A DNA stretch of 34,708 bases from Oscillospiraceae bacterium (GTDB lineage: Bacteria; Bacillota; Clostridia; Oscillospirales; Ruminococcaceae): the NCBI GenBank assembly GCA_031551695.1, contig JAVBNG010000056.1, positions 1 through 34,708 on the forward strand, in the 5' to 3' direction. The translations under genes were made by a program, and so were the position numbers. The notes below the pieces were generated by a model that saw only the letters and a list, made by a program, of their open reading frames with translations, searched no databases and was not told where the DNA came from. Numbering within the stretch: position 1 is the first letter of the stretch; every line of letters starts with the position of its first letter. Positions 284 to 31,699 of this stretch are shown here, one piece after another.

Positions 284-345
284 TTGTCACCGTGCTATAA
301 TTTTCTTGACAATACGAAACTTCTTTTTCTTTTATTGTTGGGTTC
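284..345 (+). promoter_or_regulatory. Putative promoter region for the hybrid kinase / GGDEF operon (extended -10 TGcTATAAT near 290-300; alternative TTGACA at 306-311)
   Basis: TATAAT preceded by TGn. A TTGACA hexamer sits 18 nt upstream of TTTTAT. There is a GC hairpin in the leader and a GCAGAGG RBS before the ATG at 392. Confidence 0.3.
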
Positions 346-391
346 CACACCCGCAAAGCGGGCGCCTCCTCATTGCAGAGGTAACAAACCC

Positions 392-2790: not shown

Positions 2791-2825
2791 GCGGCTTTTA
2801 CAAAAACAGTAACCGGCCTTTTATC

Positions 2826-2853
2826 AAAACCACTCGCCTGGCGAGTGGTTTTC
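2826..2853. terminator. Bidirectional terminator-like hairpin (ccactcgcc / ggcgagtgg flanked by A-run and T-run)
   Basis: Inverted repeat read directly. It lies 36 nt after the GGDEF stop. Confidence 0.5.
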
Positions 2854-2866
2854 ATTAGACAAAAAA

Positions 2867-2888
2867 CCGCCGCAGATTCCTGCGGCGG
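2867..2888. repeat. 22-bp palindromic hairpin element ccgccgcagattcctgcggcgg, copy 1
   Basis: Perfect 9-bp stem with a 4-nt loop. An identical copy lies at 3065-3086. On the minus strand it is followed by a T6 run, which is terminator-like. Confidence 0.6.
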
Positions 2889-3064
2889 CAAGGCTGTCAA
2901 AGAACGCATGAGCGCACAGGGGCCGGGGAACGCATAAGCTTATCGTCAGCCGCAAGCCGAATCGTGAACAACATTCCTTCGTTGTGCACGAAGCGGCGCG
3001 GAAGGTAGATGAGCGTTGCGTCGCCGGACACTGCGCGCGGGCTAATCTTTTTTTGACAAGCTGA

Positions 3065-3086
3065 CCGCCGCAGATTCCTGCGGCGG
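3065..3086. repeat. 22-bp palindromic hairpin element ccgccgcagattcctgcggcgg, copy 2
   Basis: Identical to 2867-2888 and in direct orientation 198 bp away. It lies 34 nt downstream of the minus-strand kinase stop. Confidence 0.6.
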
Positions 3087-3119
3087 CATATGGCGCTGTA
3101 AACATGCCCGTGAACCGTT

Positions 3120-5204: not shown

Positions 5205-5240
5205 CGGTTCAATCCTTATACGTTTCGTTGTTCACGGCAT

Positions 5241-12293: not shown

Positions 12294-15296
<3,003 letters not shown>

Positions 15297-15341
15297 CCTC
15301 ACTCCTTGAACATGCCCGGTAAATATCGTGCATCCACAGAT

Positions 15342-15506: not shown

Positions 15507-16574
15507 TTACAGCGGACTTTTGATTTTGCCGTCGATGATATCCTGCTGAATCTGGTTCACCTGGGCAATGATCTCCGGATCCAATTTGTCCTCCCAGTCA
15601 TACCAGGGGGCAAGGCCCTCGGCGCCGTCGGAAATGCCGGAAACGTTGGTCTCATATTTCAGCGTGCCGTTCAGGGAGTTTTCCACCACCACCTGCACCA
15701 GCATCTGGTTGCTTTGCAGGCAGCTGTTCACCACCACGTCCGGGGCCACTTCATACTGGTCGTCCACAAAGCCGATGTGGTAAGTGCCGCGCTCTTTGGC
15801 CGCTTCAATGGCGCCCAGGCCAACGGCGTTGGCGTCACAAGTCACAACGTCGGCGCCGTCGTCGATCATGGCGAGGGCCGTCTCTTTGCCCTTGGCAACG
15901 TCGTCCCAGGTGTTCACGTAGGTAATGGTCACTTCGGCATCCGGGTTCACGGCCTCGGCGCCCGCCTTAAAGCCCAGCATTGCGTTGGAGATGGCCGTGG
16001 TATCCTGTGCGCCGATGGCGCCGATCTTGTTGCTCTGTGAAATGAGGCCGGCCACTGCGCCGCCCACATAGCCCGCTTCCCAGCCAGTGAAGCTATAGGA
16101 CGCAAGATTGGTTCCGTTGGAGTTCGAGCCGTTCAGCACAACAAAGTCGACATCGGGGAACTCTACGCACACTTTTTCGGCGGCGTCACCAAACTGGTAG
16201 CCATGGCCGATAATAAGGTCATATCCGTCGGAAGCATAATCCCAGAACACGCCTTCCATGTCGGACTGGGCCACGTTCTCCTGGTAGGCCCCTTCAATGC
16301 CGTAGTCCTTCTCCGCCGTCATCAAGCCCTCGTAGGCCGTTGCGTTCCAGCCTTTGTCGTTGATGGAGCCCGGCAGCAACAGGGCCACCTTCAGGGCGGC
16401 GGCATCGGTGTCCGCTTCGGTGTCCGCCGCCGAAGCCGCAGTGCTCTCGGCAGTTTCAGCCGGGGCGGCGCTCTCTTCTGCCGGGGCGCTGCTGGACGAT
16501 TGGCTGCCGCCGCAAGCAGCCAGCAAAAGCATGGCGGCCAAAACAAGTGCAAGCAGTGTCTTTTTCATGTTCAA
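15507..16574 (-). CDS. BMP-family (PnrA/Med/TmpC-like) ABC transporter substrate-binding lipoprotein
   Basis: Lipoprotein signal MNMKKTLLALVLAAMLLLAAC. BMP core INDKGWNATAYEGL ... YDLIIGHGYQFGDAA. Ser/Ala-rich linker after the lipobox. Confidence 0.85.
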   Translation of the reverse strand: MNMKKTLLALVLAAMLLLAACGGSQSSSSAPAEESAAPAETAESTAASAADTEADTDAAALKVALLLPGSINDKGWNATAYEGLMTAEKDYGIEGAYQENVAQSDMEGVFWDYASDGYDLIIGHGYQFGDAAEKVCVEFPDVDFVVLNGSNSNGTNLASYSFTGWEAGYVGGAVAGLISQSNKIGAIGAQDTTAISNAMLGFKAGAEAVNPDAEVTITYVNTWDDVAKGKETALAMIDDGADVVTCDANAVGLGAIEAAKERGTYHIGFVDDQYEVAPDVVVNSCLQSNQMLVQVVVENSLNGTLKYETNVSGISDGAEGLAPWYDWEDKLDPEIIAQVNQIQQDIIDGKIKSPL

Positions 16575-16647: not shown

Positions 16648-18162
16648 TCATTGCGCCGCGGAACGGGCGCCCGCCATCATCAGGCCGATTGTTTCACGCG
16701 AAGCGCCCGCTGCGTCCATAATGCCCATCACTTCACCTTCATACATCACCAAAATACGGTCGGAAAGTTCCATAATCTCGTCCAGCTCCGTGGACACCAG
16801 CAAAACCGCACAGCCCTTGTCCCGCTCGCCCACAATGCGGCTCTGGATATATTTGGTGGCGCCGATGTCAAGGCCCCGGTCCGGGTGCATGGCAATGAGC
16901 AATCGCGGCTGCCGCTCCAGTTCACGCCCCACCACAAACTTTTGCTGGTTGCCGCCGGAAAGCTTGCCCGCCATTTCTTCCACAGAAGGGGTTTTGACGC
17001 TGTACTCTTTACAGATACCGTCGGCATATTCGGCGGCCCATTTCCAGTCGATAAAGCCATGGTGGGAACAGGGCGCCTTGTAATAGTTCATCATAATCAG
17101 GTTCTCTTTCACGGACATTTCGCCAGACATCCCCAACAAATGCCGGTCCTCCGGAATGTGGGAAACCCCTTCTTCCAAAATGGCCCGGGGAGAAAGGCAG
17201 GTGGTGTTTTGCCCGCCGATGAAAACCGTGCCCGCCGTGGCGGGGCGCAGGCCTGCCAGGCATTCCACCAGCTCGCTTTGGCCGTTGCCGTCTACGCCCG
17301 CAACGCCCAAAATTTCACCTTCGCGAATAGAAAAGCTCACCTGTTTCAGGGCCTCCAGTTTTTTGTTGTTCAGCGCACAAAGGTTCTCCACCTCCACCAC
17401 CGTTGCGCCCGCTTTGGCAGGCTCCTTCACCGTCGCCAGTTCTACGTCCCGGCCCACCATCAGCCGGGCCAGCTCGTGCGTGTCCCGCACATCGCAGGTT
17501 TGCACCGTGGCCGCCAGGCGGCCCTGGCGCAGCACGGTGCACCGCACACAGATCTCCATTACCTCGGCCAGCTTGTGGGTGATGAAAATGACTGTGTGGC
17601 CGTCACCGGTCAACTGGCGCACCATAGCGAACAAATCGCCCACTTCCTGCGGGGTCAGCACGGCGGTGGGTTCGTCCAAAATCAGCAGCTCGGCCCCGCG
17701 ATACAGTGATTTGATGATCTCCAGCCGCTGCTGCTCGCCCACGGACAGCTGCCACACCTTGGCATAGGGGTCGATGGCCATGTTGTAGCGCGCGGCAATG
17801 GCCTGCACTTCTTTGGCGGCATCGTCCAGGTTCAGCCGCACCTTGCTTTTGTGCATGCCCAGCACCACGTTCTCTATCACCGTAAGGGCGGGGATGAGCA
17901 TGAAATGCTGGTGCACCATGCCAATGCCAAGGGCAATGGCCTCCTTGGGGTCACGGATGTCCACCGGCTTGTCCCGCAAAAAAATTTCGCCGCTGTCTTG
18001 CCGGTACAGGCCGTACAGGATATTCATCAAGGTGCTTTTGCCCGCCCCGTTTTCGCCCAGCAGCGCGTGCACCTCGCCCTTTTCCACAGAAAGGCTCACG
18101 TCGTCGTTTGCCACCACGCCGGGGAAGATTTTTGTGATATTGCGCATTTCCAGAAAAGCCAT
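16648..18162 (-). CDS. ABC transporter ATP-binding protein with two fused nucleotide-binding domains (CUT2 / nucleoside-sugar type)
   Basis: Walker A GENGAGKSTLM in NBD1. A second degenerate NBD follows. 504 aa. Confidence 0.9.
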   Translation of the reverse strand: MAFLEMRNITKIFPGVVANDDVSLSVEKGEVHALLGENGAGKSTLMNILYGLYRQDSGEIFLRDKPVDIRDPKEAIALGIGMVHQHFMLIPALTVIENVVLGMHKSKVRLNLDDAAKEVQAIAARYNMAIDPYAKVWQLSVGEQQRLEIIKSLYRGAELLILDEPTAVLTPQEVGDLFAMVRQLTGDGHTVIFITHKLAEVMEICVRCTVLRQGRLAATVQTCDVRDTHELARLMVGRDVELATVKEPAKAGATVVEVENLCALNNKKLEALKQVSFSIREGEILGVAGVDGNGQSELVECLAGLRPATAGTVFIGGQNTTCLSPRAILEEGVSHIPEDRHLLGMSGEMSVKENLIMMNYYKAPCSHHGFIDWKWAAEYADGICKEYSVKTPSVEEMAGKLSGGNQQKFVVGRELERQPRLLIAMHPDRGLDIGATKYIQSRIVGERDKGCAVLLVSTELDEIMELSDRILVMYEGEVMGIMDAAGASRETIGLMMAGARSAAQ

Positions 18163-18174
18163 CCCGCCGCCCCC

Positions 18175-19095
18175 CTAGTTCTTTTTGTAAGCCCGGCCGG
18201 ACGCCGCCGGCACCTGGCTTTTACCCACAAACCCGCACAGAGCAAGGATGGTGAGCACATAAGGAACCATCAGCAGGAACTGGAACGGGATCTCGGTTCC
18301 GGCAGCCTGCAGGCGGTACATCACTGCCTCGCCCGCGCCAAACACCAGCGAAGCGCCCAAAACACCCACGGGGTTGTAGTTGCCGAACACCACGGCGGCC
18401 ACAGCCATAAAACCCCGGCCAGAGACCATGTTCTCTGTGAAAAAGCTGAGGGACCCCATGGAGACGAAAGCCCCTGCGAAACCCGCCATCAGCCCGCCAA
18501 ACAGCACGGTGCCGTATCGTATTTTGTACACGTTGATGCCCACGGTCTCGCAGGCGCGGGGGTGCTCGCCCACGGCGCGGATGTCGAGGCCGAGGTTTGT
18601 TTTGTACATCACCCACCATGCCATCGGCACCAGCAGCAGCGTCAGGTATACCGGCGCCGTCTGGCTGAACACCGCCTGCCCCAGCACCGGTATTTTGGAA
18701 AGCAACGGAATCGCCACCGGGCCAAACGCGTCGATTTGCGGCGGGGCAGTGTCCAGGCCGAAAAGCACCCTGTCCAGCATGGAGGTGAACCCAAGCCCCA
18801 GCATATTGATGGCAGTGCCGACGACGGTTTGGTCCGCCCCCACGGTGATGGTGAAATAGGCGAACAGCAACGAAACCGCCATGGCGCTTACCATGGCCGC
18901 CAAGGCGCCCAGCCATACGCTGCCTGTGTAGTACGAGCCCACAACGCCCATCAGCGCGCCCACCAGCATCATGCCCTCGGCGCCGATATTGACGACGCCC
19001 GCCTTCGCGCCGAACACAAGGCCCAAGGCGCAAATGAGGATGGGAACGGCGGTGCGAACATCCGTGGCAAGGAAATTGGTGATACCCTGCAACAT
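18175..19095 (-). CDS. ABC transporter permease (BPD_transp_2 / RbsC-NupC-like)
   Basis: Multi-TM hydrophobic protein. The ATG at 19095 lies 1 nt after the upstream permease stop (TGA-T-ATG). The first 119 codons of the ORF-track entry 18175..19452 overlap the upstream gene out of frame and are not coding. Confidence 0.75.
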   Translation of the reverse strand: MLQGITNFLATDVRTAVPILICALGLVFGAKAGVVNIGAEGMMLVGALMGVVGSYYTGSVWLGALAAMVSAMAVSLLFAYFTITVGADQTVVGTAINMLGLGFTSMLDRVLFGLDTAPPQIDAFGPVAIPLLSKIPVLGQAVFSQTAPVYLTLLLVPMAWWVMYKTNLGLDIRAVGEHPRACETVGINVYKIRYGTVLFGGLMAGFAGAFVSMGSLSFFTENMVSGRGFMAVAAVVFGNYNPVGVLGASLVFGAGEAVMYRLQAAGTEIPFQFLLMVPYVLTILALCGFVGKSQVPAASGRAYKKN

Positions 19096-19096
19096 A

Positions 19097-20233
19097 TCAC
19101 GCACCGCCTTTCCGGGCCGCAGAAAGCTTTGCGCGCGGCTTATTTTTAAAAACGTCGAACAAGTCACGTCCCACAACGAACAGGATGACAAAGGCCTGGA
19201 CGATCTGGATGACCGCGGAGGGCACCCCGGCGGACATTTGCATTTTGTTGCTGCCGCTGCGCAAAATGCCGAACAACAGGCTTGCCAGCACGATGCCAAG
19301 CGGCTTGTTGTTGCCCAAAAGGGCCACGGCAATGCCATCAAAGCCGTAGTTTGGGGAAAAACCGGGGAACAGGCGGTATTGGATGCCCAAAATCTCGCTG
19401 GTGCCGGCAAGGCCCCCAAAGCACCCCGCCAAAAACATGGCCAGCAGCGCACTACGTGCCACCTTGATGCCGCAATAGCGCGCGGCTTTGGGGTTCAGGC
19501 CCACCAGCCGCATCTCATACCCCTTGGTAGTGCGCCACATAAATATGTAATAAAACACAACACACAGCGCCGCCAGAAGAACGCCCGCGTGCAGCCGTGT
19601 GCCCTGCCAGATACGCGGCAGGATGGCGCTGTCCGCTATCAGGGAAGACTGTGCGTTGTCGCTGGCAGCGTCCTTCATCGGCCCGGTGGAAAAATAGCTG
19701 ATGAGCTGGATTGCAATATAGTTCAGCATGATGCCGGTGATCATCTCGCTGGCGCCGAAGCGGTTTTTCAGCCAGCCGGCCAGCATTCCCCACAGGCCAC
19801 CGCCCAGCGCCCCCGCCAGAATGACCAGCGGCAAATGGATGATTGCCGGAAACCCGCTAAAATACACGCCCGCAACGGTGGCAAACAACCCGCCCAAATA
19901 CACCTGGCCTTCGCCGCCAAGGTTGATAAGCCCGCACTGTTTCGCCACCGCGAAGGAAAGCCCCGTGAACAACAGAGGCACCGCCTTGATCAGTGTTTCG
20001 CCGATATTCTTTTTGCTGCCGAGGGAACCTTCGATCAAATTGACGCAGGCAAGGCGCCAATCGAAGCCCATGGCCGCAATGATGACCGCGCCCAGCGCCA
20101 GGGATGCGGCACAAGCCACGACGGGGAAAACGGCGGCGCGCGAGCCTTCGCGCAGCTTTTCCCCTATGGTTTTCGATTGCAAGAAACCCCTCCTCCACTG
20201 GTTGAGCCAAAGTGCCTTTATCCGGCAGTGCAA
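19097..20233 (-). CDS. ABC transporter permease (BPD_transp_2 family)
   Basis: N-terminal TM AAVFPVVACAASLALGAVIIAAMGF and further hydrophobic helices. The start is TTG at 20233, or slightly downstream (uncertain). Confidence 0.75.
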   Translation of the reverse strand: MHCRIKALWLNQWRRGFLQSKTIGEKLREGSRAAVFPVVACAASLALGAVIIAAMGFDWRLACVNLIEGSLGSKKNIGETLIKAVPLLFTGLSFAVAKQCGLINLGGEGQVYLGGLFATVAGVYFSGFPAIIHLPLVILAGALGGGLWGMLAGWLKNRFGASEMITGIMLNYIAIQLISYFSTGPMKDAASDNAQSSLIADSAILPRIWQGTRLHAGVLLAALCVVFYYIFMWRTTKGYEMRLVGLNPKAARYCGIKVARSALLAMFLAGCFGGLAGTSEILGIQYRLFPGFSPNYGFDGIAVALLGNNKPLGIVLASLLFGILRSGSNKMQMSAGVPSAVIQIVQAFVILFVVGRDLFDVFKNKPRAKLSAARKGGA

Positions 20234-20250: not shown

Positions 20251-21336
20251 CTAAGTTCCCATCACTTCAAGATATGTCTCCGGTGTAACAAGCGTGGAAT
20301 CCAGCAGCCGCTTGCCGTATTGCTCGCCTTCGGCCTTGAAGTCCTGCCAGGGTTTTAGCCCGCTGGTGTACCAGTCCATCACCGCAATGGCCATCAGGTG
20401 GCCGGCCTGCACACCGTTGATATAGGCCGAGGCCTTAAAGCACGCCGTCCCCTTTTTAAATTCCTCCCTGGCCGCGTAGCCGCCCACGCCTGCCACGGCG
20501 GCGCTGTCCTCTTTGCCGCTTTGCTCCAGCACGCGGCAAACGCTTGCCGCGCCTTCGTCCGTGGGGGCCATGGCCACCCAATAGCGGATGCCCGGATGGG
20601 CCACAATGGCCGCCGACGCCGCATTGAAGGCGGCCTGCCCGGTGCCGTCGTAATCGGCGTAATACATGCGTTCCGCCGGGAAATCCGGCAATTTTTCAAG
20701 GAATCCGGCCACGGCGCCCTCGTGCCTGGCGATATAGTCGGAGGTGCTTTTCATGGTAAGGCACAAAAACCCCACGCCGCCGGTGTCGATCTCGTTTTCC
20801 AGCAAATGGCCGCCCAAAAAGCGCCCAATCTCCAGCCCGCAGGCGTAGCTGTCCACCGCGATGGCCGGGGCCAGCAGACGGCCGCCGTCATCGATCAGCG
20901 GGTCGGAATCGGCCAGCAGTAAAATACCCGCCTGGCCGCACCGCTGCACCGTCACCTTGCTCAAATGCTCGTCCGGAGGGCACACAACCAGGCAGTCGAC
21001 CCCCTGGGTGATCATGTCGTCCAGCGCCACAAGGTAATTGGTGGGGCTCATCTGGGTGTCGGCAACCAACACCCTGGAGGCCCCGCGCTGCAAGCAGCTG
21101 GTTTCCAGCGAGCGCGCCACGTGGGTGAACCACGGCTGGGACAGTTCCTTGCAAATGTACCCCACCACCGGGCCCGGTTTTTCCGCCACGGTGCTTTCGC
21201 CTGAAAAGGCGCTTTGCGGCGCGGCGCCGCAGCCTGCAAGGGCGGCGGCGAGCAACAGGGCCAAAAAGGAGAAAAAACGTTTTTTCCCCCGCCCGGCTTC
21301 CGCCGGGGTGTACAAACCGTAAAAACGTGTTACCAT
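20251..21336 (-). CDS. Type-I periplasmic-binding-protein fold (RbsB/LacI-like Peripla_BP) sugar-binding lipoprotein, first gene of the ABC operon
   Basis: Lipoprotein signal ... FFSFLALLLAAALAGC. PBP1-like pattern of alternating beta-alpha (VGYICKELSQPWF ... VDCLVVCP ... ). GGAGA RBS before the ATG at 21336. Confidence 0.7.
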   Translation of the reverse strand: MVTRFYGLYTPAEAGRGKKRFFSFLALLLAAALAGCGAAPQSAFSGESTVAEKPGPVVGYICKELSQPWFTHVARSLETSCLQRGASRVLVADTQMSPTNYLVALDDMITQGVDCLVVCPPDEHLSKVTVQRCGQAGILLLADSDPLIDDGGRLLAPAIAVDSYACGLEIGRFLGGHLLENEIDTGGVGFLCLTMKSTSDYIARHEGAVAGFLEKLPDFPAERMYYADYDGTGQAAFNAASAAIVAHPGIRYWVAMAPTDEGAASVCRVLEQSGKEDSAAVAGVGGYAAREEFKKGTACFKASAYINGVQAGHLMAIAVMDWYTSGLKPWQDFKAEGEQYGKRLLDSTLVTPETYLEVMGT

Positions 21337-21517
21337 AATATTCTCCGCATGTTTTTCGGTAAATCAATTATACTTGGTACGGCTCCGACAATCATTCAAC
21401 ATCATTCGCATTTTGTCAATAATTGATATTTTTTACAAGTAAATCTTTATCCTCTCCGGCGTAATTGCTATACTGTAACCACGGGAAGGCGGCGGCACAA
21501 AAAGGAGCAATGTGCGT

Positions 21518-23272
21518 ATGCATGAACAAAAGGCCAAGAAGGAAAAACAGCCGCGCATCCGCCGGCTCAGCTTCCAAATGACCCTGTATTTTTCCGTGGT
21601 CATCGTCATCACCTTCCTCACTCTGGCCCTTCTCATCAGCAATTTGTTTGCCGGGCAGCTGATGAAGGAGATGGACGACGTACTGAACAGGAAAATGGGC
21701 CTGATGGACAGCGAGCTGAAAAACCAGCTTTTGCAGGTGCAGGCCCTGCACGCCAGCCTCATCAACGACAACATCCTGCGCACCGGCATGCTGAACGTGC
21801 GCGAAAACGGCGTGGACGCCGCCGGCATGGGCATCATACAGGGCCATTTAACCAGCTTTGCCCGCCAGGCCTCTTATGTTACATCCATTGTGGCATTTGA
21901 CGCCAACCAGAATATTTTGCATTCCTACTATTCCCTGCCGCCCTATTCCAGCCTGGTGGCAAAGTCGGAGGAGTTCAAGGCGTTTCACGCCTCGGCCCGC
22001 ACGCGCAGCTTTACTAGGCCAGATTCTTTTCCCGTGGCCATGGGCTCGCAGGACAGTGGCAGCATCACCTATCTCGGCCTTTTGTATGACCCCGTAGAAG
22101 ACTACGAAACCCTCGGCACCGTGGCCATCAACCTAAAAACAAGCTTTCTGTTTTCCTCCCTTGCCCCGCTGGCAGCCGATTCTTTTGACGCCTGCTTCCT
22201 CACCGGGCCGGACGGCGCCGTTGTTTACAGCACGGCGCGGGAAGGCTTCCAAAGCCTGGGCCCGGCGGATGTAGACAGCTCCTTTCGGATGTACTGCACC
22301 CAAGTGTCCGGCTATCCGGATTGGAAGCTTACCTGCGTGCTGCGTGAATCGGCATTCCAGTCCGGCCTTGTGGACATGTACAAGGTGGTCATCGGCATGT
22401 CTTTGGTGGCGCTGTTTTTCGTCATTTTGCTCAGCTTTTACATCGCCAAAACCATCACCCGCCCCATCGACCGTATGAAGAGCGCCATGGTCATCCTTGG
22501 CGCGGGGGACTACCCGCCGGAAATCACGGCAAACTCCGGCGGCGAAATGCGGGAACTGGTTGTGGGCTTCAACACCATGGTAAGCGACATCCGCCGCCTC
22601 ACCGGGGAGATTATTGAAAAGCAGGAGAAGGAAAAGGAGTATGAGGTGGCCATGGTACAAACCCGGCTGGATCTGCTACAGCTGCAAATCAACCCCCACT
22701 TTATCCACAACACGCTGAATAGCATGAAATATATGGCACAGACCGCCCACAACGACGAACTTGTGGAAACCATCACCGCTTTCAATGCCCTTTTGCGAGC
22801 CAGCATGTCCTCTTTGCAGGAACAGGCCAGCGTGATGGAAGAGATTGTAAACACCCAGAATTACCTGCACTTGCAGCGCGGGCGGTATGGGTTTGCAATC
22901 GGATTTCACCACGAAACAGGCGATGAAGCGCAGTTTGCCCTGCTGCCAAAACTGATTTTGCAGCCCATTGTGGAAAATGCGCTGTTCCACGGCATTGCCC
23001 CGGCAGATGGCGGAAACATCTTCTGCCGTTTTGAAAAGCAGGGCAACGCGCTGGTGGTGACAGTGCGGGACGACGGCGTGGGCATCCCGGAAGAAAAGCT
23101 TGCCGACATTGCAGGTGGCAAGATGGAAAGCGGCCGCAGCTACAGCCACATCGGCCTTGCCAATGTGAACCAGCGGCTGGTGCTGCTGTACGGCGAAGGC
23201 AGCCATTTGCAAATGAACAGCAAAGAAGGGCGCGGCACCACCGTCACTTTTCAAATTCCATTCATCACCTGA
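21518..23272 (+). CDS. YesM/LytS-family sensor histidine kinase (2 TM, approximately 250-aa extracytoplasmic domain, HAMP, His_kinase PF06580, HATPase_c)
   Basis: Diagnostic LQLQINPHFIHNTLNSMKYM box. HATPase GGNIF ... DDGVGI ... The ATG at 21518 is 9 nt after AAGGAG. The GTG at 21512 is an alternative start. Confidence 0.8.
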   Translation: MHEQKAKKEKQPRIRRLSFQMTLYFSVVIVITFLTLALLISNLFAGQLMKEMDDVLNRKMGLMDSELKNQLLQVQALHASLINDNILRTGMLNVRENGVDAAGMGIIQGHLTSFARQASYVTSIVAFDANQNILHSYYSLPPYSSLVAKSEEFKAFHASARTRSFTRPDSFPVAMGSQDSGSITYLGLLYDPVEDYETLGTVAINLKTSFLFSSLAPLAADSFDACFLTGPDGAVVYSTAREGFQSLGPADVDSSFRMYCTQVSGYPDWKLTCVLRESAFQSGLVDMYKVVIGMSLVALFFVILLSFYIAKTITRPIDRMKSAMVILGAGDYPPEITANSGGEMRELVVGFNTMVSDIRRLTGEIIEKQEKEKEYEVAMVQTRLDLLQLQINPHFIHNTLNSMKYMAQTAHNDELVETITAFNALLRASMSSLQEQASVMEEIVNTQNYLHLQRGRYGFAIGFHHETGDEAQFALLPKLILQPIVENALFHGIAPADGGNIFCRFEKQGNALVVTVRDDGVGIPEEKLADIAGGKMESGRSYSHIGLANVNQRLVLLYGEGSHLQMNSKEGRGTTVTFQIPFIT

Positions 23273-23281
23273 GGGAGAACC

Positions 23282-24844
23282 ATGAAAACCATTCTATTGG
23301 TCGATGACGAATTCCCCGCACGCCAGATGGTGAAAAGCATGGTGGACTGGGGGAAAAGCGGCTTCACCGTGATGTATGAGGCAAAAAACGGCGCCGAAGC
23401 CCTGCAGCTGTATCGCCAGCACAAACCGGACCTTATCATCAGCGATATCCAGATGCCGGTGATGGACGGGCTGGAACTGCTGTCTGCCATCCGTGAAACA
23501 GACCCGCAGCAGTTGTTCATCATCCTCAGCTGCTTCGAACGGTTCGACTACGCGCGGCAGTTGGTGCGCCTTGGAGGACTCGATTACCTCATCAAAGACA
23601 CCCTCACGCCGGAAGGGCTGTACACCGCTTTGCAGCAAGCAAAGGGGAGGCTGGAACCGGCGCAAAAGGATGCCGGAACCGCCGGCAAAGCAGTTCTGGC
23701 GCAGCCCTCCGCCTGCAGCCTGGCCCTGCGGCGGTGGCTGCGTGGCGAAAATGGCGAAGAGACCGCGCGGCAGCTGAGGGAGGCGGCGGAAGAGGACGGA
23801 CGTTTTCTGCTGGCCTGCGCAAAGCTGGAGGGCGGCGGCAGGACTCAGCCGGATGCGCTGGCAGCGTGGCTGGAAGGCCTGCCGGATATTCCCGGCTGGC
23901 GCGGCCGTGCCGCGGGCCCCGGCGGGGAAATCCTGCTGTATTTGTCACTGCCAAAAAACGGGGGCGAGGATGACCCGGCCCGCAAATATGCCCTGCTGCA
24001 GGCGGTGAAAGCCGTGCTGGAAAGCGGTGACGGCAACAGGGCCACACTGGGGGTAAGCGCGGTGCACAAAACCGCCGACGAATTGCCCGCCGCGCGCGCA
24101 GAAAGCGAAGACGCCTTACGCTACCGTTTATTTTTGGGGCAGGGGAATATTTTGTATTACAACCCTTTGCAAAACGCCAGCCATGCCGTGCAGCACCGGC
24201 AGTTGGAAACGCGCATTGCCAATTTACGCGCCGCCCTTGCGGCGGACGAGATGGCCACAGTGAATGGCAATTTGGACAATTTGTACGGCGCAAACCTGCA
24301 CGGCGTCATGCACCTGAATTACCTTACCTACCTCAATTCGGTCTTGTGGGGCATGCTGGCGGAAGAGCGCATGCTGCGCGGCCAGATAGACGCGCCCGGC
24401 GGAGACGGCCCGAAAACAGCGGCGGATGTTTTACGGCTGGGCAGCGTGGAGGAAATGAAAAACACCTTCAGCGGCGCTTTCACGGCTCTTTCAAGCGCCT
24501 GCCGGCGGCAGTCCGCCCCGGAATACAGCCAGCGCGTGCGCCATATCATCCAGTACATCGGCGAGCATTTGGCCGAGGATGTCAGCCTGGACGTGCTGGC
24601 CCGCCATTTTCAAACCCACAAAACCCATCTTGCCCGCACTTTTAAGGAAGAAACCGGCTTGGGCGTGCAGGAGTTCATTCGGCAAGCGCGTATCGAAGAG
24701 GCAAAAAACCTTTTGATGAACAGCCAAATGCGGGTCAACGAGATCGTTTACCATGTGGGCTTCAAAAACGCACAGAACTTTTACACTTTATTCACCCGCT
24801 ATGTGGGCCTTACACCAAAGGCATTCCGCGATCAATATGGTTAG
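23282..24844 (+). CDS. YesN-like response regulator (REC + C-terminal AraC-type HTH)
   Basis: REC LLVDDEFPARQ ... LIISDIQMPVMDG. C-terminal AraC helix-turn-helix ... FKNAQNFYTLFTRYVGLTPKAFR. GGAGGGAG RBS. Confidence 0.85.
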   Translation: MKTILLVDDEFPARQMVKSMVDWGKSGFTVMYEAKNGAEALQLYRQHKPDLIISDIQMPVMDGLELLSAIRETDPQQLFIILSCFERFDYARQLVRLGGLDYLIKDTLTPEGLYTALQQAKGRLEPAQKDAGTAGKAVLAQPSACSLALRRWLRGENGEETARQLREAAEEDGRFLLACAKLEGGGRTQPDALAAWLEGLPDIPGWRGRAAGPGGEILLYLSLPKNGGEDDPARKYALLQAVKAVLESGDGNRATLGVSAVHKTADELPAARAESEDALRYRLFLGQGNILYYNPLQNASHAVQHRQLETRIANLRAALAADEMATVNGNLDNLYGANLHGVMHLNYLTYLNSVLWGMLAEERMLRGQIDAPGGDGPKTAADVLRLGSVEEMKNTFSGAFTALSSACRRQSAPEYSQRVRHIIQYIGEHLAEDVSLDVLARHFQTHKTHLARTFKEETGLGVQEFIRQARIEEAKNLLMNSQMRVNEIVYHVGFKNAQNFYTLFTRYVGLTPKAFRDQYG

Positions 24845-24889
24845 CGGGCCAGATAAGCAGAAACCGAAAGCACGAAAGGCGTGGTTGGG

Positions 24890-25909
24890 ATGCGGCGCGT
24901 GAAAAGATGGATGGCGCTGGCGGCGGCGTTGCTTTTGTTCTCTTTTTGTGCCTGCGGCAGGCAAAGCGTACAAAGCGCGGCCGGCGACGCGGCGGCGGCA
25001 CCGGCGGCCGGGCAGGCTGCTATGCGGGCGGCCGGCCTGCGGGCAGCCGTGGTGCTGGATGGCCCGGCGAACGGCCGCGCCTGGAACGCGGACTGCTGCG
25101 CGGGCCTTTTGCAAGCCCGCGACATTTTGGGCTACGAAATCGACATTGCCGAAAATGTTGCCCCGGCGGACTTCGAGCAGGCCTTCCGCGCCTACGCCGA
25201 GGCCGGGTACGACCTGATCATCGCGCCGGGGCTGCAATATCTGCCCGCGGTGGAAGCTCTTTACGCCGATTACCCCGGCACCCATTTTGCGGGCTTCAAT
25301 TTTCCTTTCACGGCCGGCAATGTAACGTCGCTCAACTTCAACCACCTGCAGGCAGGCTTTTTGGCCGGCGCCCTCGCCGGGCTGTGCACAAAAACGGGCT
25401 CCGTCGGCTTCATCGGCGGTGACGAGGTTTCCTCTACCATGAATGTCATGCGCGGTGCCGGCCAGGGCATTCGCCATGTGCGGGGCGATGTGCAGTTCAC
25501 GGTTTCCACCGTCGGCGCATGGAATGACCCCGCCAAGGCAAAAGGTCTGGCGCAAACACAGATAGGATCCCAGGGCGTGGACGTGATTTTGGCTTACGGG
25601 GACGGCGGCAACCGGGGTGTTGTGGAAGCTGCGGAAGGCAAGGCGGCCTGCATCGTGGTGGACGCCATTGACGCGCGCGTCACCGCCCCGGACACTGTGT
25701 GCGGCGGTGTTTTGCTAAGCAACAGCGCCATGGTATTGTTTGCGGCAGACATCGTGGCCGCAGGCCAAAGCGGGCGGGCCGTGGTTGGCGATGTAGCGAA
25801 CGGTGTGGTGCGGCTGGGTTCCTTTGGCACAGCGGTGGACGGAGCCACGGCGGAAACACTTGGGGGCATTTACGATGATATCGCGTCCGGCAACATAACG
25901 ATTACCTGA
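24890..25909 (+). CDS. Second, divergent BMP-family lipoprotein, encoded immediately after the YesM/YesN pair
   Basis: Signal MRRVKRWMALAAALLLFSFCAC. BMP-like core GRAWNADCCAGL ... YDLIIAPGLQYLPA. The GTG at 24881 is an alternative start. Confidence 0.75.
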   Translation: MRRVKRWMALAAALLLFSFCACGRQSVQSAAGDAAAAPAAGQAAMRAAGLRAAVVLDGPANGRAWNADCCAGLLQARDILGYEIDIAENVAPADFEQAFRAYAEAGYDLIIAPGLQYLPAVEALYADYPGTHFAGFNFPFTAGNVTSLNFNHLQAGFLAGALAGLCTKTGSVGFIGGDEVSSTMNVMRGAGQGIRHVRGDVQFTVSTVGAWNDPAKAKGLAQTQIGSQGVDVILAYGDGGNRGVVEAAEGKAACIVVDAIDARVTAPDTVCGGVLLSNSAMVLFAADIVAAGQSGRAVVGDVANGVVRLGSFGTAVDGATAETLGGIYDDIASGNITIT

Positions 25910-25929: not shown

Positions 25930-25968
25930 AAATAGCCCGGGCAGCTTGCCGCCCGGGCTGTTTCGTTT
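25930..25968. terminator. Bidirectional terminator between the BMP lipoprotein gene and the convergent metal-transport operon
   Basis: agcccgggc ... gcccgggct stem followed by GTTTCGTTTGG. Preceded by AAAAATA. Confidence 0.5.
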
Positions 25969-26771: not shown

Positions 26772-28697
26772 CTATTTTTCGCCCGCGAATTTCCAGCCCA
26801 GCAGGCGGGACGAGTTGAGCACGACGAAAATGGACGACGCATTGTGGATGATGGCGGCTAAAATCGGGTTCAAAAAACCGAGGCCCGACAGCGCGATGCC
26901 GATGACATTCACGAATACGGCAAACACCCAAATATTTTGCTGGATGATGCGGTAGGTGCGGCGGCACAGGGCAAAAATGGCGGGCAGAGCGTCGATATTG
27001 TCCGACATCAGGGTGATGGACGCCGCCTCAATGGCAACGTCCGTGCCCGCGGCCCCCATGGCGATGCCCACGTCCGCCAGCGCCAGCGCGGGCGCGTCGT
27101 TCACGCCGTCGCCCACCATGGCCACCACTTCGCCCTTCGCCTTCATTTCTTTAATGGCGTCCAGCTTTTCCTCCGGCAGCAGGTTCGCCTTGAACTCGTC
27201 AATGCCCGCCTCGGCGCAAATGGCCTTCGCCGTGTACTCGTTGTCGCCGGTCAGCATCACGATATGCTGGATGCCGATGTCCCTTAGCTTTTGCATGGAA
27301 GCAGGCACGGTTTCGCGGATGGTGTCCGCCACAGAGAGCGCCCCCAGCACCCGGCCGTCCTTCACGGCAACCAGCGCCGTGCGGCCAAAGCTCTCTTCCT
27401 GCCGCACAAAGGGCATGATTTCGTCCGCTCCCGCGGGGGCGTCCTCCAGCAGCTTTTTGTTCGAAACCTCATACACCGCGCCGTTGTCCACAGCCTTCAC
27501 GCCCCGGCCAAACAGCATTTCAAATTCGGCGTTGGGGATGTCTTTCATCCTCATCTGTTTTTGGCCTGTTAAAAACGAAACAACGGCCTTTGCAATGGGG
27601 TGGTTCGAGTTCTTCTCGCAAACAGCCAAGCTATACAAAAACTCTTCCTCCGAAGCGCCCGGGGCAACCTGCGTCGCAATCACCTCCGGCGTACCGTTTG
27701 TGATGGTGCCGGTTTTATCAAGGCACAGGGTGGTCACTTTGGCGCTTGTTTCAATGGCCACGCCGCCTTTGATGAGCACGCCGCGCTTGGCCCGGTTGCC
27801 CACGCTGGCCACCACCGCCGTGGGCGTGGCCAGCACCAGCGCGCAGGGGCACGCGATGACAAGGATGGTCATCACACGCATGATGTCCCGCGTGATGAGG
27901 AACGTGATGACGCAGATGACAAGGATGATGGGCAAAAAATACTGGGCGAACACGTCGGCGGATTTTTGGGCGTCGCCCTTGTTCTCCTGCGCGGCCTTCA
28001 CCGTGGCGATGATTTTGCCCAGCACGGTGTTGCTGCCCAGCTTTTCCGCCTCTATCTCAATCACGCCGGTCTCGTTCAACGTGCCCACAAACACCTTGTC
28101 GCCCACGGTTTTGTCCGCCGGCATGGACTCGCCCGTGATGGACGCCTCGTTGATGGCGGCCTGCCCCTTTTTGATCACGCCGTCTACCGCTATTTTTTCG
28201 CCCGCGCGCACCTGGATCATGCTGCCCACGCGCACGCTTTTCAGCGGCACTTCTTTGTACTCGCCGTCCACCAGCATACGGCAGGTGGGCGGCACCAGGC
28301 GAATGAGCTCCCGCACGGCGTTTTTGGTTTTCTCCATGGTCAAATCTTCCAAAAACTCGCCGAAGATCATCATGAACGCCACAATGGCGCCGGACAGGTA
28401 TTCCCCCACCGCCGTGGTGCCGATGAGGGCCAGCACCACCAGCATGCCCGCGGTGATTTTCTTTTTGGCGATGGTTGCCTGCACGGTGGACTTGATAACG
28501 AACACCCCGCCCAGAACAAGCGGGAGGATGGACACGGGGAACGGAATGACCCCCACCCACAAATAATCGAACAGCGCGCCCAGAACGATGAGCACCGCCA
28601 GCACGGCGGGGAAAATGAACACTTTAAAATTAAAAGACGATTTTTTCTTCGCCTTTTGGGCCGCAGCCGCTGCAGCCGGCTGTTTCACTGCTTCCAT
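26772..28697 (-). CDS. P1B-type heavy-metal translocating ATPase with no N-terminal metal-binding (HMA/CxxC) domain
   Basis: CPC motif in VIACPCALVLATPTAV. DKTGTIT phosphorylation site. GDGVNDAPAL hinge. HNASSIFVVLNS in the last TM. The ATG at 28697 has a GGGAGG RBS. The GTG at 28727 from the ORF track is probably upstream leader. Confidence 0.85.
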   Translation of the reverse strand: MEAVKQPAAAAAAQKAKKKSSFNFKVFIFPAVLAVLIVLGALFDYLWVGVIPFPVSILPLVLGGVFVIKSTVQATIAKKKITAGMLVVLALIGTTAVGEYLSGAIVAFMMIFGEFLEDLTMEKTKNAVRELIRLVPPTCRMLVDGEYKEVPLKSVRVGSMIQVRAGEKIAVDGVIKKGQAAINEASITGESMPADKTVGDKVFVGTLNETGVIEIEAEKLGSNTVLGKIIATVKAAQENKGDAQKSADVFAQYFLPIILVICVITFLITRDIMRVMTILVIACPCALVLATPTAVVASVGNRAKRGVLIKGGVAIETSAKVTTLCLDKTGTITNGTPEVIATQVAPGASEEEFLYSLAVCEKNSNHPIAKAVVSFLTGQKQMRMKDIPNAEFEMLFGRGVKAVDNGAVYEVSNKKLLEDAPAGADEIMPFVRQEESFGRTALVAVKDGRVLGALSVADTIRETVPASMQKLRDIGIQHIVMLTGDNEYTAKAICAEAGIDEFKANLLPEEKLDAIKEMKAKGEVVAMVGDGVNDAPALALADVGIAMGAAGTDVAIEAASITLMSDNIDALPAIFALCRRTYRIIQQNIWVFAVFVNVIGIALSGLGFLNPILAAIIHNASSIFVVLNSSRLLGWKFAGEK

Positions 28698-28727
28698 GGT
28701 CGCGCCTCCCTCAGTCTTGCATCCCAC

Positions 28728-28785
28728 ATCCCCCCATGGGGGTTATTCTTGTGTTCATTATATGCCCCTTGCCGCGGGTTGTCAA
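28728..28785 (-). promoter_or_regulatory. Promoter-operator module A: TTGACA (28785-28780), 17 nt, TATAAT (28762-28757), then the palindrome ATCCCCCCATGGGGGTTAT (28728-28746) in the leader of the ATPase operon
   Basis: Consensus hexamers with ideal 17-nt spacing, read on the minus strand. The C6-AT-G5 tract palindrome flanked by AT matches the CsoR/RcnR operator architecture. Confidence 0.6.
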
Positions 28786-29837
28786 GCGGGAAAACCAGCC
28801 AGTTCACGAATCACTTGCGAAAGGCACCGGTACGCCAGCAACAGCGACGCTTCGGAAATATATTCGCCCTTGCCGTGGATGCCGCCCACGCGGTTGCCCG
28901 GGTGCAGCGGAAAAAAGCCCAGCACCGGCAGGCCCGCCGCGCGGAAGTGCCGGTTGTCGCTTTGGCCGGGGGCAATGTAGGGCATGGCGCCCCACGCGTG
29001 CTCCATTGCCCGCAGCACACCCGATATGGCAGGCAATGCGCGCCGGTACAGTGCCGAAGATGGCATCCGCGCATATTCCGGCGCTTCCAGCAGTGCCGCA
29101 AGGCCGCTGTAAAAATGCCGCTGCGGAATGTGCCGCCCGCCAAAAAGCCCCGGCAGCGCCCGGATGTAACCCAGCGTGGTTTCGTCGTAAAGGCCGAGGA
29201 CGGCGGCGCGGCGGTACAGTGCCTGCTGTTTTTCCAACGAGGGCGGCGCGCCCGGCCCATCGGCCTTTTGCAGGCCCATTTCTCCGGTTTGCACAGTGAA
29301 CAGCCACTTATCCCCCATCGGCACCGGAATGCCGCCGCCTTCCCCCAGCACAAGGGCCACGCGGCGGAACACGTCCGTTTGCTCCAACAGCCACTTTGTG
29401 CCAAGCTCGCCGCCGGTTTCTTCATCGGCGGTTGCGGCAAACAGCACGGTTTTTTGCGGCGTGCGGCCGCTTTGCGCCATGGCGCACAGCACATGGGCCC
29501 AAACGGCGGCGTTGCCCTTGCAGTCCAGCGTGCCGCGGCCGTACAGCCTGCCGTTTTTGCGCACAAGCCGCGTGGAAGAAACGCCTACGGGCGTTTCATA
29601 GGCGGCGGTGTCCAGGTGGGTGTGCACCAAAATGCTTTCCTCGCTTCGCCCGGGTATTCGCGCCACCAGGCTCCCCCGGCCGGGAAGGGGCTCGTGCAGC
29701 GTGTTTTCCACGCCGCACCGCCGGAAAAAGGCATCCAAAATTTCGGCCGCCCGCGTTTCGTTATGCGCCGGGGGCGTTGTATCGGTATTGACAAGCCCGG
29801 AGAGAAGTGCAATCATAGAAGCAAGCATATCCCCCAT
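28782..29837 (-). CDS. M20-family metallopeptidase (ArgE/DapE/PepV/aminoacylase-like)
   Basis: Motifs HTHLDTA and GRGTLDCKG (compare HxDVV and GRGAxDxKG of M20), and the ATADEETGGELG metal-ligand region. The true start is downstream of promoter B (ATG at 29837, 29828 or 29816). The ORF-track TTG at 29891 lies inside the -35 hexamer. Confidence 0.75.
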   Translation of the reverse strand: MGDMLASMIALLSGLVNTDTTPPAHNETRAAEILDAFFRRCGVENTLHEPLPGRGSLVARIPGRSEESILVHTHLDTAAYETPVGVSSTRLVRKNGRLYGRGTLDCKGNAAVWAHVLCAMAQSGRTPQKTVLFAATADEETGGELGTKWLLEQTDVFRRVALVLGEGGGIPVPMGDKWLFTVQTGEMGLQKADGPGAPPSLEKQQALYRRAAVLGLYDETTLGYIRALPGLFGGRHIPQRHFYSGLAALLEAPEYARMPSSALYRRALPAISGVLRAMEHAWGAMPYIAPGQSDNRHFRAAGLPVLGFFPLHPGNRVGGIHGKGEYISEASLLLAYRCLSQVIRELAGFPA

Positions 29838-29891
29838 CCCCCCATATGGTAACTGTGTTCGCAGTATATGCCCGGCGGGGGTTTCTGTCAA
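29827..29891 (-). promoter_or_regulatory. Promoter-operator module B: TTGACA (29891-29886), 17 nt, TATACT (29868-29863), then the G/C-tract element ATAT-C5-AT-C6-ATATGG (29827-29849) upstream of the M20 gene. It also lies in the intergenic region before the divergent CsoR-like gene.
   Basis: About 65 bp shares blocks with module A (tgtcaagcggg, tatatgccc, tgtgttc, C/G tracts), read directly. Confidence 0.6.
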
Positions 29892-29934
29892 GCGGGCGGC
29901 GGCTTCGCGCCCCTTTCACGGAGGTGACACACAC

Positions 29935-30246
29935 ATGGACGACCACGGCCACGGCCATTCCCACACCCATTCGCCGGAGGATTACCAGCGGATGATCAAC
30001 CGCATGTCCCGCATCGTGGGCCACGCAAACGCCATCAAAAGCATGATGGAGGAACAGCGCGACTGCACGGAAATTCTGGTGCAAATTTCCGCCGTGCAGG
30101 CGGCGCTGAACAACCTTGGCAAGCTGATGCTGAAGGACCACATCGACCAGTGCATCGTGCACGCCATCGACGGCTCCACCGGCGAAGAGGAAAAAAAACG
30201 GGTGCTGAACAGCCTGAATGAGGCGATCGAAAAATTTATCCGTTAG
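29935..30246 (+). CDS. CsoR/RcnR-family (DUF156) metal-sensing transcriptional repressor with a His-rich N-terminal extension
   Basis: Family signature QRMINRMSRIVGHANAIKSMMEEQRDCTEILVQISAVQAALNNLGKLMLKDHIDQC. Ligand positions Cys (RDC) and His..Cys (HIDQC). N-terminus MDDHGHGHSHTHS. GGAGGTG RBS. Confidence 0.75.
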   Translation: MDDHGHGHSHTHSPEDYQRMINRMSRIVGHANAIKSMMEEQRDCTEILVQISAVQAALNNLGKLMLKDHIDQCIVHAIDGSTGEEEKKRVLNSLNEAIEKFIR

Positions 30247-30430: not shown

Positions 30431-31699
30431 ATGAGCGGCTATAATGCGGTATTGGCACGAAATACGAACGACGCACCGAACAATGCGTTGTATTCACAAA
30501 CGGTGGCTTTTTCCCACTACAACAACCTTTCGGCCCAGCTGCCCGCAGACCCCGCAACCGGCAAACTGGTGGCGGGCGGCGTGAAAGAGCAGACACAGCA
30601 GTGCTTCAAAAACATCGAGGCCGTGGTAAACAGCATCGGCCACGTGATGAGCGACGTCGTGCGCATCAGCGTGTTCGTGCGTGACATCAAGGACGTGGAC
30701 GCGGTGGACGAGGTGTACAAAACCTTCTTCCCCACCTATGTGCCCACGCGCACAACGGCCGCCGTGGCGGCCCTGCCCATGGACGCACTGGTGCAGGTGG
30801 AAGCGCTGGTCTCCAACGGCGAGGGCACCATTCCAAACGCGCCGCAGGCGGGCGATTTGATCAAGCTGGCAAACAACACGGCAAACGCGCCGGTAAGCGC
30901 CCTGTCCTCGCAGACGGTGGCGTTCTCCCATTACAACAACCTTTCGGCCCAGCTGCCCATCGACCCGAAAACCGGACGCCTGGTGCCGGGCGGCGCGGCG
31001 GCGCAGGCTGCCCAGTGCCTTGCGAACATCAAGGCCATTTTGGAAAGCATAGACGTTCCGTTGGATGATATTGTGAAAATGAACGTCTTTTTGACGAACC
31101 CGGCAAACAACAAGGCCGTGAACGAGGTGTACACCACCTTCTTCCCGGACTCCGGCATCGCCCGCGCCGCGGCCTACATGCCCGCGCGCACCACCATCGT
31201 CGCCGACGCTTTGCCCATGGGCGCTTTGGTGCAGATGGAAGCCGTGGTGTCCCACGGGGACGGCACGCCCCCGCAGGCGGTGGAGGACCGGCATGGCCTG
31301 ATTATTGAGGCAAACAACACGGACAGCGCGCCGAAAAGCCCGCTCTCCACGCAAACGGTGGCCTTCTCGCACTACAACCATCTTTCCGCCCAACTGCCGC
31401 GAGACCCGAAAACCGGCAAAACCGTGGCCGGCGGCGCAAAGGAGCAGGCGGCCCAGTGCCTTGCCAACATCAAGGCCATTGTGGAGAGCATCGGCCACGC
31501 CATGGCCGACGTGGTGAAAGTGAATATCTTCGTCAAAAACATCGCCGACATCGGCGCGGTGGACGAGGCCTACAAAACCTACTTCCCCGGTGGCGTGCCC
31601 GCGCGGAAGGTTTTGGGCGTGTCCGCCCTGCCGGACGACGCACTTGTTCAAATAGACGCCGTTGTGGCGAACGAGGAAGGGACGCCGCCCGTCGCATAA
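30431..31699 (+). CDS. Single polypeptide with three tandem RidA/YjgF/TdcF (endoribonuclease L-PSP, reactive-enamine/imine deaminase) domains
   Basis: Each domain of about 140 aa carries the RidA pattern (SQTVAFSHYNxLSAQLPxDPxTG ... AQCLANIKAI ... VVKxNxFxxN ... VDEVYxTFFP ... PAR ... ALP ... LVQxEAVV). The three copies are visible as about 420-bp DNA repeats. Confidence 0.8.
   Translation: MSGYNAVLARNTNDAPNNALYSQTVAFSHYNNLSAQLPADPATGKLVAGGVKEQTQQCFKNIEAVVNSIGHVMSDVVRISVFVRDIKDVDAVDEVYKTFFPTYVPTRTTAAVAALPMDALVQVEALVSNGEGTIPNAPQAGDLIKLANNTANAPVSALSSQTVAFSHYNNLSAQLPIDPKTGRLVPGGAAAQAAQCLANIKAILESIDVPLDDIVKMNVFLTNPANNKAVNEVYTTFFPDSGIARAAAYMPARTTIVADALPMGALVQMEAVVSHGDGTPPQAVEDRHGLIIEANNTDSAPKSPLSTQTVAFSHYNHLSAQLPRDPKTGKTVAGGAKEQAAQCLANIKAIVESIGHAMADVVKVNIFVKNIADIGAVDEAYKTYFPGGVPARKVLGVSALPDDALVQIDAVVANEEGTPPVA

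Follow-up and report, generated by a model that had tools for sequence, protein, structure and literature searches.

A BMP-family lipoprotein encoded behind a YesM/YesN-type two-component system: a candidate co-sensor at an importer locus of apparently chimeric origin

When several binding proteins are encoded next to a single sensor kinase, which of them feeds the kinase becomes a question of annotation, and this question is raised by a locus in a 34,708-nt stretch of DNA (hereafter, the window) from an Oscillospiraceae bacterium (GCA_031551695.1, contig JAVBNG010000056.1). Here, the genes for a YesM-type sensor histidine kinase and a YesN-type response regulator are followed by a gene for a divergent lipoprotein of the BMP family, designated as BMP-B, and face an operon for an ATP-binding cassette (ABC) importer. 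An earlier inspection of the same DNA (hereafter, the original prediction) had proposed that the BMP lipoprotein is the co-sensor of the kinase and that the system controls the adjacent importer in response to a nucleoside or a related metabolite. The analyses described herein indicated that BMP-B is a candidate co-sensor or accessory transport receptor, and that PBP4, an unrelated binding lipoprotein encoded on the other side of the kinase gene, is an equally serious candidate for the co-sensor.

The kinase gene is located at positions 21518-23272 of the plus strand (alternative start, 21512), and its translation displayed a ca. 243-aa extracytoplasmic domain bracketed by two hydrophobic segments, giving the arrangement of transmembrane helix TM1, a dCache domain, TM2, HAMP (Pfam E-value of 3e-11), His_kinase (PF06580; 4e-18) and HATPase_c (1e-15). 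The regulator gene (23282-24844, plus strand) encodes a receiver domain (Response_reg; 1e-22), a weak GGDEF_2-like linker and an AraC-type helix-turn-helix (HTH) domain (HTH_18/HTH_AraC; 8e-22). As in known three-component systems, a PF06580-type kinase having its extracytoplasmic domain between two transmembrane helices was thus found together with a receiver-AraC regulator. The third cistron, encoding BMP-B, spans positions 24890-25909 of the same strand when read from an ATG, or begins at 24881 when read from a GTG, and is separated from the regulator stop codon by 45 or 36 nt, respectively. GAAAGG is present upstream of the start, and a scan of the gap between the regulator and BMP-B genes for terminator-like sites found none. 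Just 3' of BMP-B, a G+C-rich hairpin of 11 pairs (9 of them G-C) with T-runs on both sides was identified at 25934-25959, and the genes beyond it run convergent to BMP-B; the hairpin is likely a bidirectional terminator that ends a kinase-regulator-BMP-B operon. From this arrangement, BMP-B appears to be co-transcribed with the kinase and the regulator. The three genes and the spacing of 36-45 nt given in the original prediction were borne out by these open reading frames (ORFs) and their Pfam domains.

The BMP-family membership of the third gene product, on which the prediction turned, was confirmed by the profile search that it had called for. BMP-B matched PF02608 with 115.5 bits (cut-off, 24.1; E-value, 3.2e-33) over profile positions 3-269 of 301, far below the 231.6 bits of BMP-A, a second BMP-family lipoprotein encoded by the last gene of the importer operon (15507-16568, minus strand). 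BMP-A is likely the cognate transport receptor of the importer, and its best match in the PDB was Lbp (7x0r; 8.9e-38). The importer core is encoded between BMP-A and the kinase gene on the minus strand, and consists of a fused two-domain ATPase (16648-18162) and two BPD_transp_2 permeases, namely permease 1 (18175-19095; the listed ORF extends to 19452, and the orthologs are 306 aa) and permease 2 (19097-20233; the true start is probably near 20182). The best NCBIfam models for these three proteins were those of BMP/B6-type transporters (155 bits for permease 2 with the B6-type permease 2 model, 209 bits for permease 1 and 486 bits for the ATPase), as compared with ca. 25-29 bits for sugar permease models. 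The first gene of the operon (20251-21336, minus strand) encodes PBP4, an AraF-like Peripla_BP_4 lipoprotein (PF13407; E-value, 1e-15) whose best PDB matches were L-arabinose-binding proteins (4kzk, 7.8e-20; Escherichia coli AraF 1abe, 9e-11). The locus therefore holds three binding-protein lipoproteins, PBP4, BMP-A and BMP-B, the non-BMP one being head-to-head with the kinase. The divergent ABC operon with its own BMP protein, as originally proposed, was found to exist in that BMP-A is present; BMP-A is, however, the last gene of the operon, ca. 5 kb away, and the directly divergent PBP4 had been overlooked. With respect to gene position, a paralogous receptor, BMP-A, thus lies within the divergent ABC operon and occupies the place of a transport receptor, and BMP-B is set apart from the permeases by the kinase-regulator operon and the control region.

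Whether this arrangement recurs was examined from the importer side. Relatives of BMP-A were many, and through one of them, P0127 (77% identical), we reached a locus of another assembly (GCA_964472465.1; hereafter, L012) in which the full set of eight genes, BMP-B among them, is ordered and oriented as in the window, with a gap of 43 nt between the regulator and BMP-B genes. In this single complete orthologous locus, the identities to the window proteins were 52% for BMP-B, 55% for the regulator, 67% for the kinase, 66% for PBP4, 78% for permease 2, 82% for permease 1, 78% for the ATPase and 77% for BMP-A (80% over the aligned columns). In both the window and L012, the BMP-B gene accordingly appears to share an operon with the two-component genes, apart from the transporter genes. 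A further locus, L004, lies on a short contig that ends within the regulator gene and carries the BMP-type permease 2 (82%), PBP4 and the kinase (P0086, 76%). As for the gene next to BMP-A, L012 has a TRZ/ATZ-family amidohydrolase following BMP-A, where the window has, ca. 200 nt downstream, a hybrid histidine kinase of 1002 aa (12294-15302, minus strand; CHASE4, HisKA, HATPase_c and two receiver domains); the adjacency of this hybrid kinase to BMP-A is therefore not conserved.

The substitution rates between the window and L012 fell into two groups. The nonsynonymous rate (dN) was low for the importer core (BMP-A, 0.13; permease 1, 0.13; ATPase, 0.16; permease 2, 0.16) and higher for the regulatory set (kinase, 0.26; PBP4, 0.29; regulator, 0.39; BMP-B, 0.47). 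With the synonymous rate (dS) saturated (0.9-2.2), the dN/dS of BMP-B was ca. 0.25, and BMP-B is thus considered to be under purifying selection. That BMP-B evolves in the rate class of the regulatory genes fits a sensor paralogue of BMP-A.

The control region between PBP4 and the kinase (21337-21511) was also compared among these loci. Intergenic alignment of the window, L012 and L004 revealed a nearly invariant block of ca. 35 nt (21385-21423), although the proteins of these loci differ by 20-50%. The block is made up of ACAATCATTCAACA at 21388-21401 and GCATTTTGTCAATAA at 21408-21422, and TGCTATACT was found upstream of the kinase gene in the same control region. Furthermore, a promoter scan placed a minus-strand promoter-like site, TTGACA-17-AATGAT, over the conserved block, which is probably the promoter and regulator-binding site of the importer operon. 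A search of the window for other copies gave no convincing match for either part of the block, and therefore no second regulated promoter was identified.

The sequence of BMP-B itself is that of a divergent family member. Its identity to BMP-A is 31%, and it is ca. 30% identical to every BMP clade; in the BMP tree, BMP-B and its L012 ortholog, which is likewise annotated as PF02608, formed their own long branch. These values ruled out that BMP-B is a recent duplicate of BMP-A. In a protein search with BMP-B, the best non-self match was only 35% identical, which suggested an orphan; this notion was ruled out by the 52% identical ortholog in L012, reached through the BMP-A neighbourhood. The word-indexed protein searches had missed the L012 orthologs of both BMP-B (52%) and the kinase sensor domain (64%), even though the gene calls of that contig include both, and absence from these searches is thus weak evidence. 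A scan of metagenome contigs with the BMP-B alignment found no relatives. The N-terminus of BMP-B is a signal peptide with a lipobox-like sequence, FSFCAC, which includes Cys20 and Cys22; as judged without a dedicated predictor, the window lipobox MRRVKRWMALAAALLLFSFCAC-G is atypical, with either Cys20 or Cys22 as the candidate for the lipidated residue. The lipobox of the L012 ortholog is canonical (...AVLLAGC-A), and the Cys20 column is invariant.

The best PDB relatives of BMP-B were Lbp (7x0r; 5.6e-20) and a Med homolog (2hqb; 3.5e-17), followed by 3s99, AtzT (6pi5) and PnrA (2fqw). The entry 7x0r is probably the guanosine-bound Lbp of Clostridium thermocellum described in PMC9601137, a paper in which the PDB code does not appear. 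In the family alignment, the D..SFN motif is represented in BMP-B by AWN, in which the Asn and an aromatic residue (Trp for Phe) are retained, as is the Phe of the EGSF motif (QAGF, within QAGFLAG). The residues at these aromatic and Asn positions in PnrA and BmpD stack on and contact the base (PMC7093131). BMP-B departs from the consensus at VD (FN), KRVD (LSNS) and GVDSDQ (VVDAID, and LMESAE in L012), and BMP-A is also off consensus at VD, GVDxDQ and KRVD. We take these three positions to be ribose contacts. Together with the amidohydrolase neighbours, the departures hint that the ligand of BMP-A and BMP-B might be a base-like heterocycle rather than a ribonucleoside, and the nucleoside named in the original prediction thus became uncertain. 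In BMP-A, BMP-B and Med alike, the SFN motif of PnrA-type proteins is replaced by GWN/AWN.

We then considered the partner on the kinase side, i.e., the 243-aa extracytoplasmic domain (21653-22381, plus strand). A sequence-profile search of this domain against the PDB returned only noise, and a single-sequence AlphaFold2 model was unusable (predicted local distance difference test score, pLDDT, of 39); a model from a 19-sequence alignment, which was used instead, reached a pLDDT of 87.7 and a predicted template modelling score (pTM) of 0.85. On this model, the sensor domain is predicted to be a dCache domain, having the tandem PAS-like fold. The best matches in the fold search were NagS and KinD, and domains of chemoreceptors and kinases with bound ligands were among the top structural matches. 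No structural match was to LytS, and the fold search ruled out a LytS-like four-helix bundle for this domain. The family of the sensor domain is very small, with 35 representatives at E ≤ 1e-3 among 1.84 billion.

The arrangement was compared with known binding-protein-assisted kinases. In CuaD/CuaA of Ruminiclostridium cellulolyticum (PMC10384115) and NagB1/NagB2 of Paenibacillus sp. FPU-7 (PMC8233162), the two-component genes contain or adjoin the gene for a sensor binding protein, whereas a transport paralogue is encoded with the permeases; NagS is the kinase encoded beside the sensor-type binding protein NagB1 (PMC8233162). The present locus resembles CuaD-CuaS-CuaR and NagB1-NagS-NagR in its YesM-type kinase with a large extracytoplasmic domain and its AraC-type regulator, and in the presence of two paralogous binding proteins, one a lipoprotein encoded within or adjoining the two-component operon and the other encoded in the regulated or transporter operon. 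It differs in that CuaD and NagB1 belong to the SBP_bac_1 family, have the type II fold, bind oligosaccharides and are encoded ahead of the kinase, whereas the gene following the regulator here is of the BMP family, and in that a further, unrelated binding lipoprotein, PBP4, is encoded opposite the kinase. With XylFII-LytS-YesN of Clostridium beijerinckii, the locus would share a binding-protein-assisted kinase and an AraC-type regulator for an adjacent CUT2-class ABC importer, and XylFII is a PF13407 protein as is PBP4. However, XylFII has a transport receptor of its own family, XylF, whereas PBP4 has no same-family transport partner at the locus, and the sensor domain of LytS is a TarH-like four-helix bundle (2021 review of binding proteins in signalling), unlike the dCache domain predicted here. 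LuxQ of Vibrio is a hybrid kinase in a quorum-sensing phosphorelay, whose partner LuxP has no transport role, and the system has neither an AraC-type regulator nor a regulated importer.

A parallel that involves a BMP protein is Med-KinD of Bacillus subtilis, which likewise combines a kinase having a dCache extracellular domain with a BMP-family lipoprotein, in this case one with the GWN/AWN motif mentioned above. In work attributed to Banse and dated 2011, the output of KinD reportedly requires the BMP lipoprotein Med. KinD is, however, a sporulation and biofilm phosphorelay kinase of another class than the YesM-type kinase; the med and kinD genes are not known to lie side by side or to involve a paralogous transporter. 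To our knowledge, no ligand of Med is known. As for the nucleoside receptors PnrA/TmpC, BmpD and Lbp, BMP-B shares with them the Pfam family, the lipoprotein anchoring, the importer type (two BMP-type permeases and a fused ATPase) and the aromatic sandwich for a planar base, and differs from them in lying outside the transporter operon and in being off consensus at VD, GVDxDQ and KRVD. The original prediction had called the BMP partner non-canonical against type-I periplasmic binding-protein partners. This distinction held only at the level of the family, because many BMP matches were co-annotated with PF13407 and PF02608 and BMP proteins thus share the fold class of known partners; CuaD and NagB1 are themselves not type-I proteins.

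A wider survey of the kinase family was revealed to point to PBP4 rather than to any BMP protein. In L007, which holds the nearest member of the sensor-domain family (P0092, 30% identical), the kinase faces an operon of an AraG-like ATPase, one permease and PBP4, the last being 52% identical to the window copy; the next member (P0093, L009) also faces an AraG-like ATPase, with GH127 and GH31 genes nearby. A metagenome scan anchored on PBP4 gave 17 loci, 9 of which had enough flank for the neighbourhood to be read; in all nine, a YesM-type kinase and a YesN-type regulator adjoin the PBP4 homolog (37-52% identical), and in eight, a sugar-type ATPase and one permease are present. A scan of genome contigs with the kinase alignment returned two unrelated loci, the patterns being too specific. 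Linkage of PBP4 to the kinase thus extends over the window, L012, L004, L007 and the nine flanked metagenome loci, and that of BMP-B over both complete orthologous loci, the window and L012. In one locus, L027 (7803-20093), the genes for a related kinase and regulator lie head-to-head with that of a PBP4 homolog encoded on its own, behind which comes a gene for a GH2-like surface protein of 2929 aa (GH2, F5/8 type C, InlB B-repeat); what a binding-protein-assisted sensor appears to control here is a giant glycosidase and not a transporter.

The importer core has a different affiliation. It is orthologous to a system of Zhaonella formicivorans (ATPase, 63%; permease 2, 59%; permease 1, 68%; BMP-A, 61%), whose locus has neither two-component genes nor PBP4, and has extra BMP genes, making two BMP receptors, together with a TRZ/ATZ-family amidohydrolase. 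Between the window and L007, by contrast, the ATPases are only 36% identical and the permeases are almost unrelated. Since the PBP4 module is found elsewhere beside AraFGH-like importers while the window importer core is orthologous to the Zhaonella BMP-type system, the gene content argues that the locus is a chimera, in which a sugar-sensing module of AraF-like PBP4, kinase and regulator has been joined to a BMP-type importer and BMP-B has been added after the regulator. In Zhaonella formicivorans (CP085524.1, 93214-114233; L013), the importer is interleaved with the amidohydrolase, FMN reductases, a ThiS-like protein, an aldehyde:ferredoxin oxidoreductase and a second complete BMP transporter, which suggests a heterocycle catabolic island.

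Taking these results together, we tentatively favored, at somewhat below even probability, the explanation that BMP-B is a surface co-sensor of the importer substrate for the dCache kinase, whose regulator would then activate the divergent promoter, with PBP4 probably being a second, ancestral input. BMP-B would be produced from the regulatory operon and anchored at the cell surface, where it would bind the planar heterocyclic substrate of the importer (a purine, nucleobase or nucleoside-like compound). The ligand-loaded BMP-B would report to the dCache domain of the kinase, in parallel to what CuaD, NagB1 and XylFII do for their transporters and Med does for KinD; the phosphorylated regulator would turn on the conserved divergent promoter, and the importer would be expressed. 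PBP4, the ancestral neighbour of the kinase, would probably provide a second input, or act as a second transport receptor, for an arabinose-like sugar. The evidence base, three related loci plus analogy, speaks for this co-sensor role of BMP-B through the operon position, the L012 synteny, the sensor/transport paralogue pattern, the rate class, the kept aromatic pocket and the Med-KinD precedent. Several observations weigh against it. PBP4, and not a BMP protein, is the constant neighbour of the kinase family: a BMP gene was found within 10 kb in none of the nine flanked PBP4 metagenome loci, nor in L007, BMP-B in none of the 11 wider kinase-family loci (the nine metagenome loci, L007 and L009), and in L027, PBP4 stands by itself next to the kinase and regulator. 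BMP-B is known from two sequences only, those of the window and L012, and its nearest database relatives occur in ordinary transporter or unrelated contexts (a nucleoside-catabolism ABC operon in L002, an unrelated one in L003 and a permease-linked one in L011). In addition, the gene order of kinase, regulator and binding protein differs from the usual order of binding protein, kinase and regulator, and a transport-only role would be unexceptional because multi-BMP loci without a kinase exist, as in Zhaonella. The co-sensor interpretation of the original prediction hence appeared plausible but unproven: the operon position, the recurrence in L012, the importer paralogue and the KinD-like dCache domain spoke for it, and the conserved neighbour PBP4 and the possible service of BMP-B as a second transport receptor spoke against it.

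The constancy of PBP4 also leads to a rival explanation, which we regard as possible though on the doubtful side: PBP4 might be the sole binding-protein partner of the kinase, like XylFII, LuxP or ChvE, and BMP-B, expressed at a low level, might serve as a second transport receptor to broaden or fine-tune the importer specificity, with no part in signalling. Besides the adjacency of PBP4 homologs to related kinases and regulators in L007 and the nine flanked metagenome loci, L027 has its PBP4 head-to-head with the kinase and no ABC core in the 10 kb downstream. In the window, PBP4 stayed with the kinase despite the exchange of the AraGH-like ATPase and permease for BMP-type ones (ATPase, 36% versus 63%), which argues that its function is tied to the kinase; its dN (0.29) also matches that of the kinase (0.26), and the two BMP receptors at the orthologous importer of Zhaonella do without a kinase. 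On the other hand, PBP4 is co-transcribed with the permeases (a gap of 17-68 nt), the normal position of a transport receptor and not of a dedicated sensor, and there is no obvious logic in an arabinose-type sensor turning on a purine-type importer. Nor does this explanation account for the retention of BMP-B in the regulatory operon of the two complete loci, or for its threefold higher rate of evolution relative to BMP-A. It seemed quite unlikely that the kinase senses directly through its dCache pocket, with all three lipoproteins being transport receptors of one importer and the system an ordinary transporter regulator. Small ligands are commonly bound directly by dCache domains, as the ligand-bound domains among the top structural matches recall; most kinase-family loci have only one binding protein, that of the adjacent transporter; and CuaSR lacking CuaD keeps some response to cellobiose (PMC10384115). 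Yet the PBP4 of L027 without a nearby transporter fits a transport-only role poorly, PBP4 was kept here after its cognate permease and ATPase had been lost, and neither complete locus has BMP-B in its transporter operon.

An unlikely, more elaborate variant is a four-component sensor, in which one dCache kinase would receive input from both the AraF-like PBP4 and the BMP-family protein, the sugar-sensing module having been grafted onto a purine/nucleoside-type importer. Finally, BMP-B might play no role in the system, being a passenger or a paralogue in decay, in line with its being the fastest-evolving gene of the locus (dN, 0.47), the lack of close relatives in the protein search and the atypical lipobox of the window copy. 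This is highly improbable, however, given that the ORF is intact and conserved in length in two lineages with saturated synonymous sites, that the dN/dS is ca. 0.25, and that the signal peptide, the Cys, the family motifs and the position and spacing after the regulator are all conserved.

If BMP-B is the co-sensor as favored above, the locus represents a variant of the known three-component design with a BMP-family sensor. The kinases known to be assisted by binding proteins involve a handful of binding-protein families. No BMP-family partner is listed in the 2021 review of binding proteins in signalling, and no pairing of YesN with a BMP protein turned up in our search of the literature. Should the four-component variant apply, BMP-B would be the first BMP-family ligand-loaded co-receptor of a YesM/YesN system, and would offer a ligand-based rationale for Med-KinD. 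A BMP protein in a two-component operon with its paralogue in the regulated importer would make a tractable system for asking whether BMP proteins are ligand-dependent co-receptors; if BMP-B is merely a spare transport receptor, the locus is ordinary. The most unusual features are the chimeric origin and the two candidate receptors: the locus records an exchange of modules, in which a kinase, a regulator and an arabinose-type binding protein were transferred from the setting of a sugar importer to that of a purine-type one.

The window also contains other genes. A signalling cluster at 284-6449 encodes two hybrid kinases (284-1687, plus strand; 3120-5204, minus strand), a GGDEF protein (1678-2790, plus strand) and a FIST-domain protein (5241-6449, minus strand). 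Beyond the hairpin, the region 26772-30246 encodes a P-type ATPase (26772-28727, minus strand), an M20 peptidase (28782-29891, minus strand) and a CsoR-like metal-sensing repressor whose ORF has a long N-terminal extension (29608-30246, plus strand), and may be a metal-efflux unit unrelated to the BMP-B finding. Although most RidA proteins are single-domain, a 422-aa ORF at 30431-31699 (plus strand) was revealed to have three tandem RidA / Endoribonuclease L-PSP domains (PF01042; 242 bits in three stretches), an unusual fusion.

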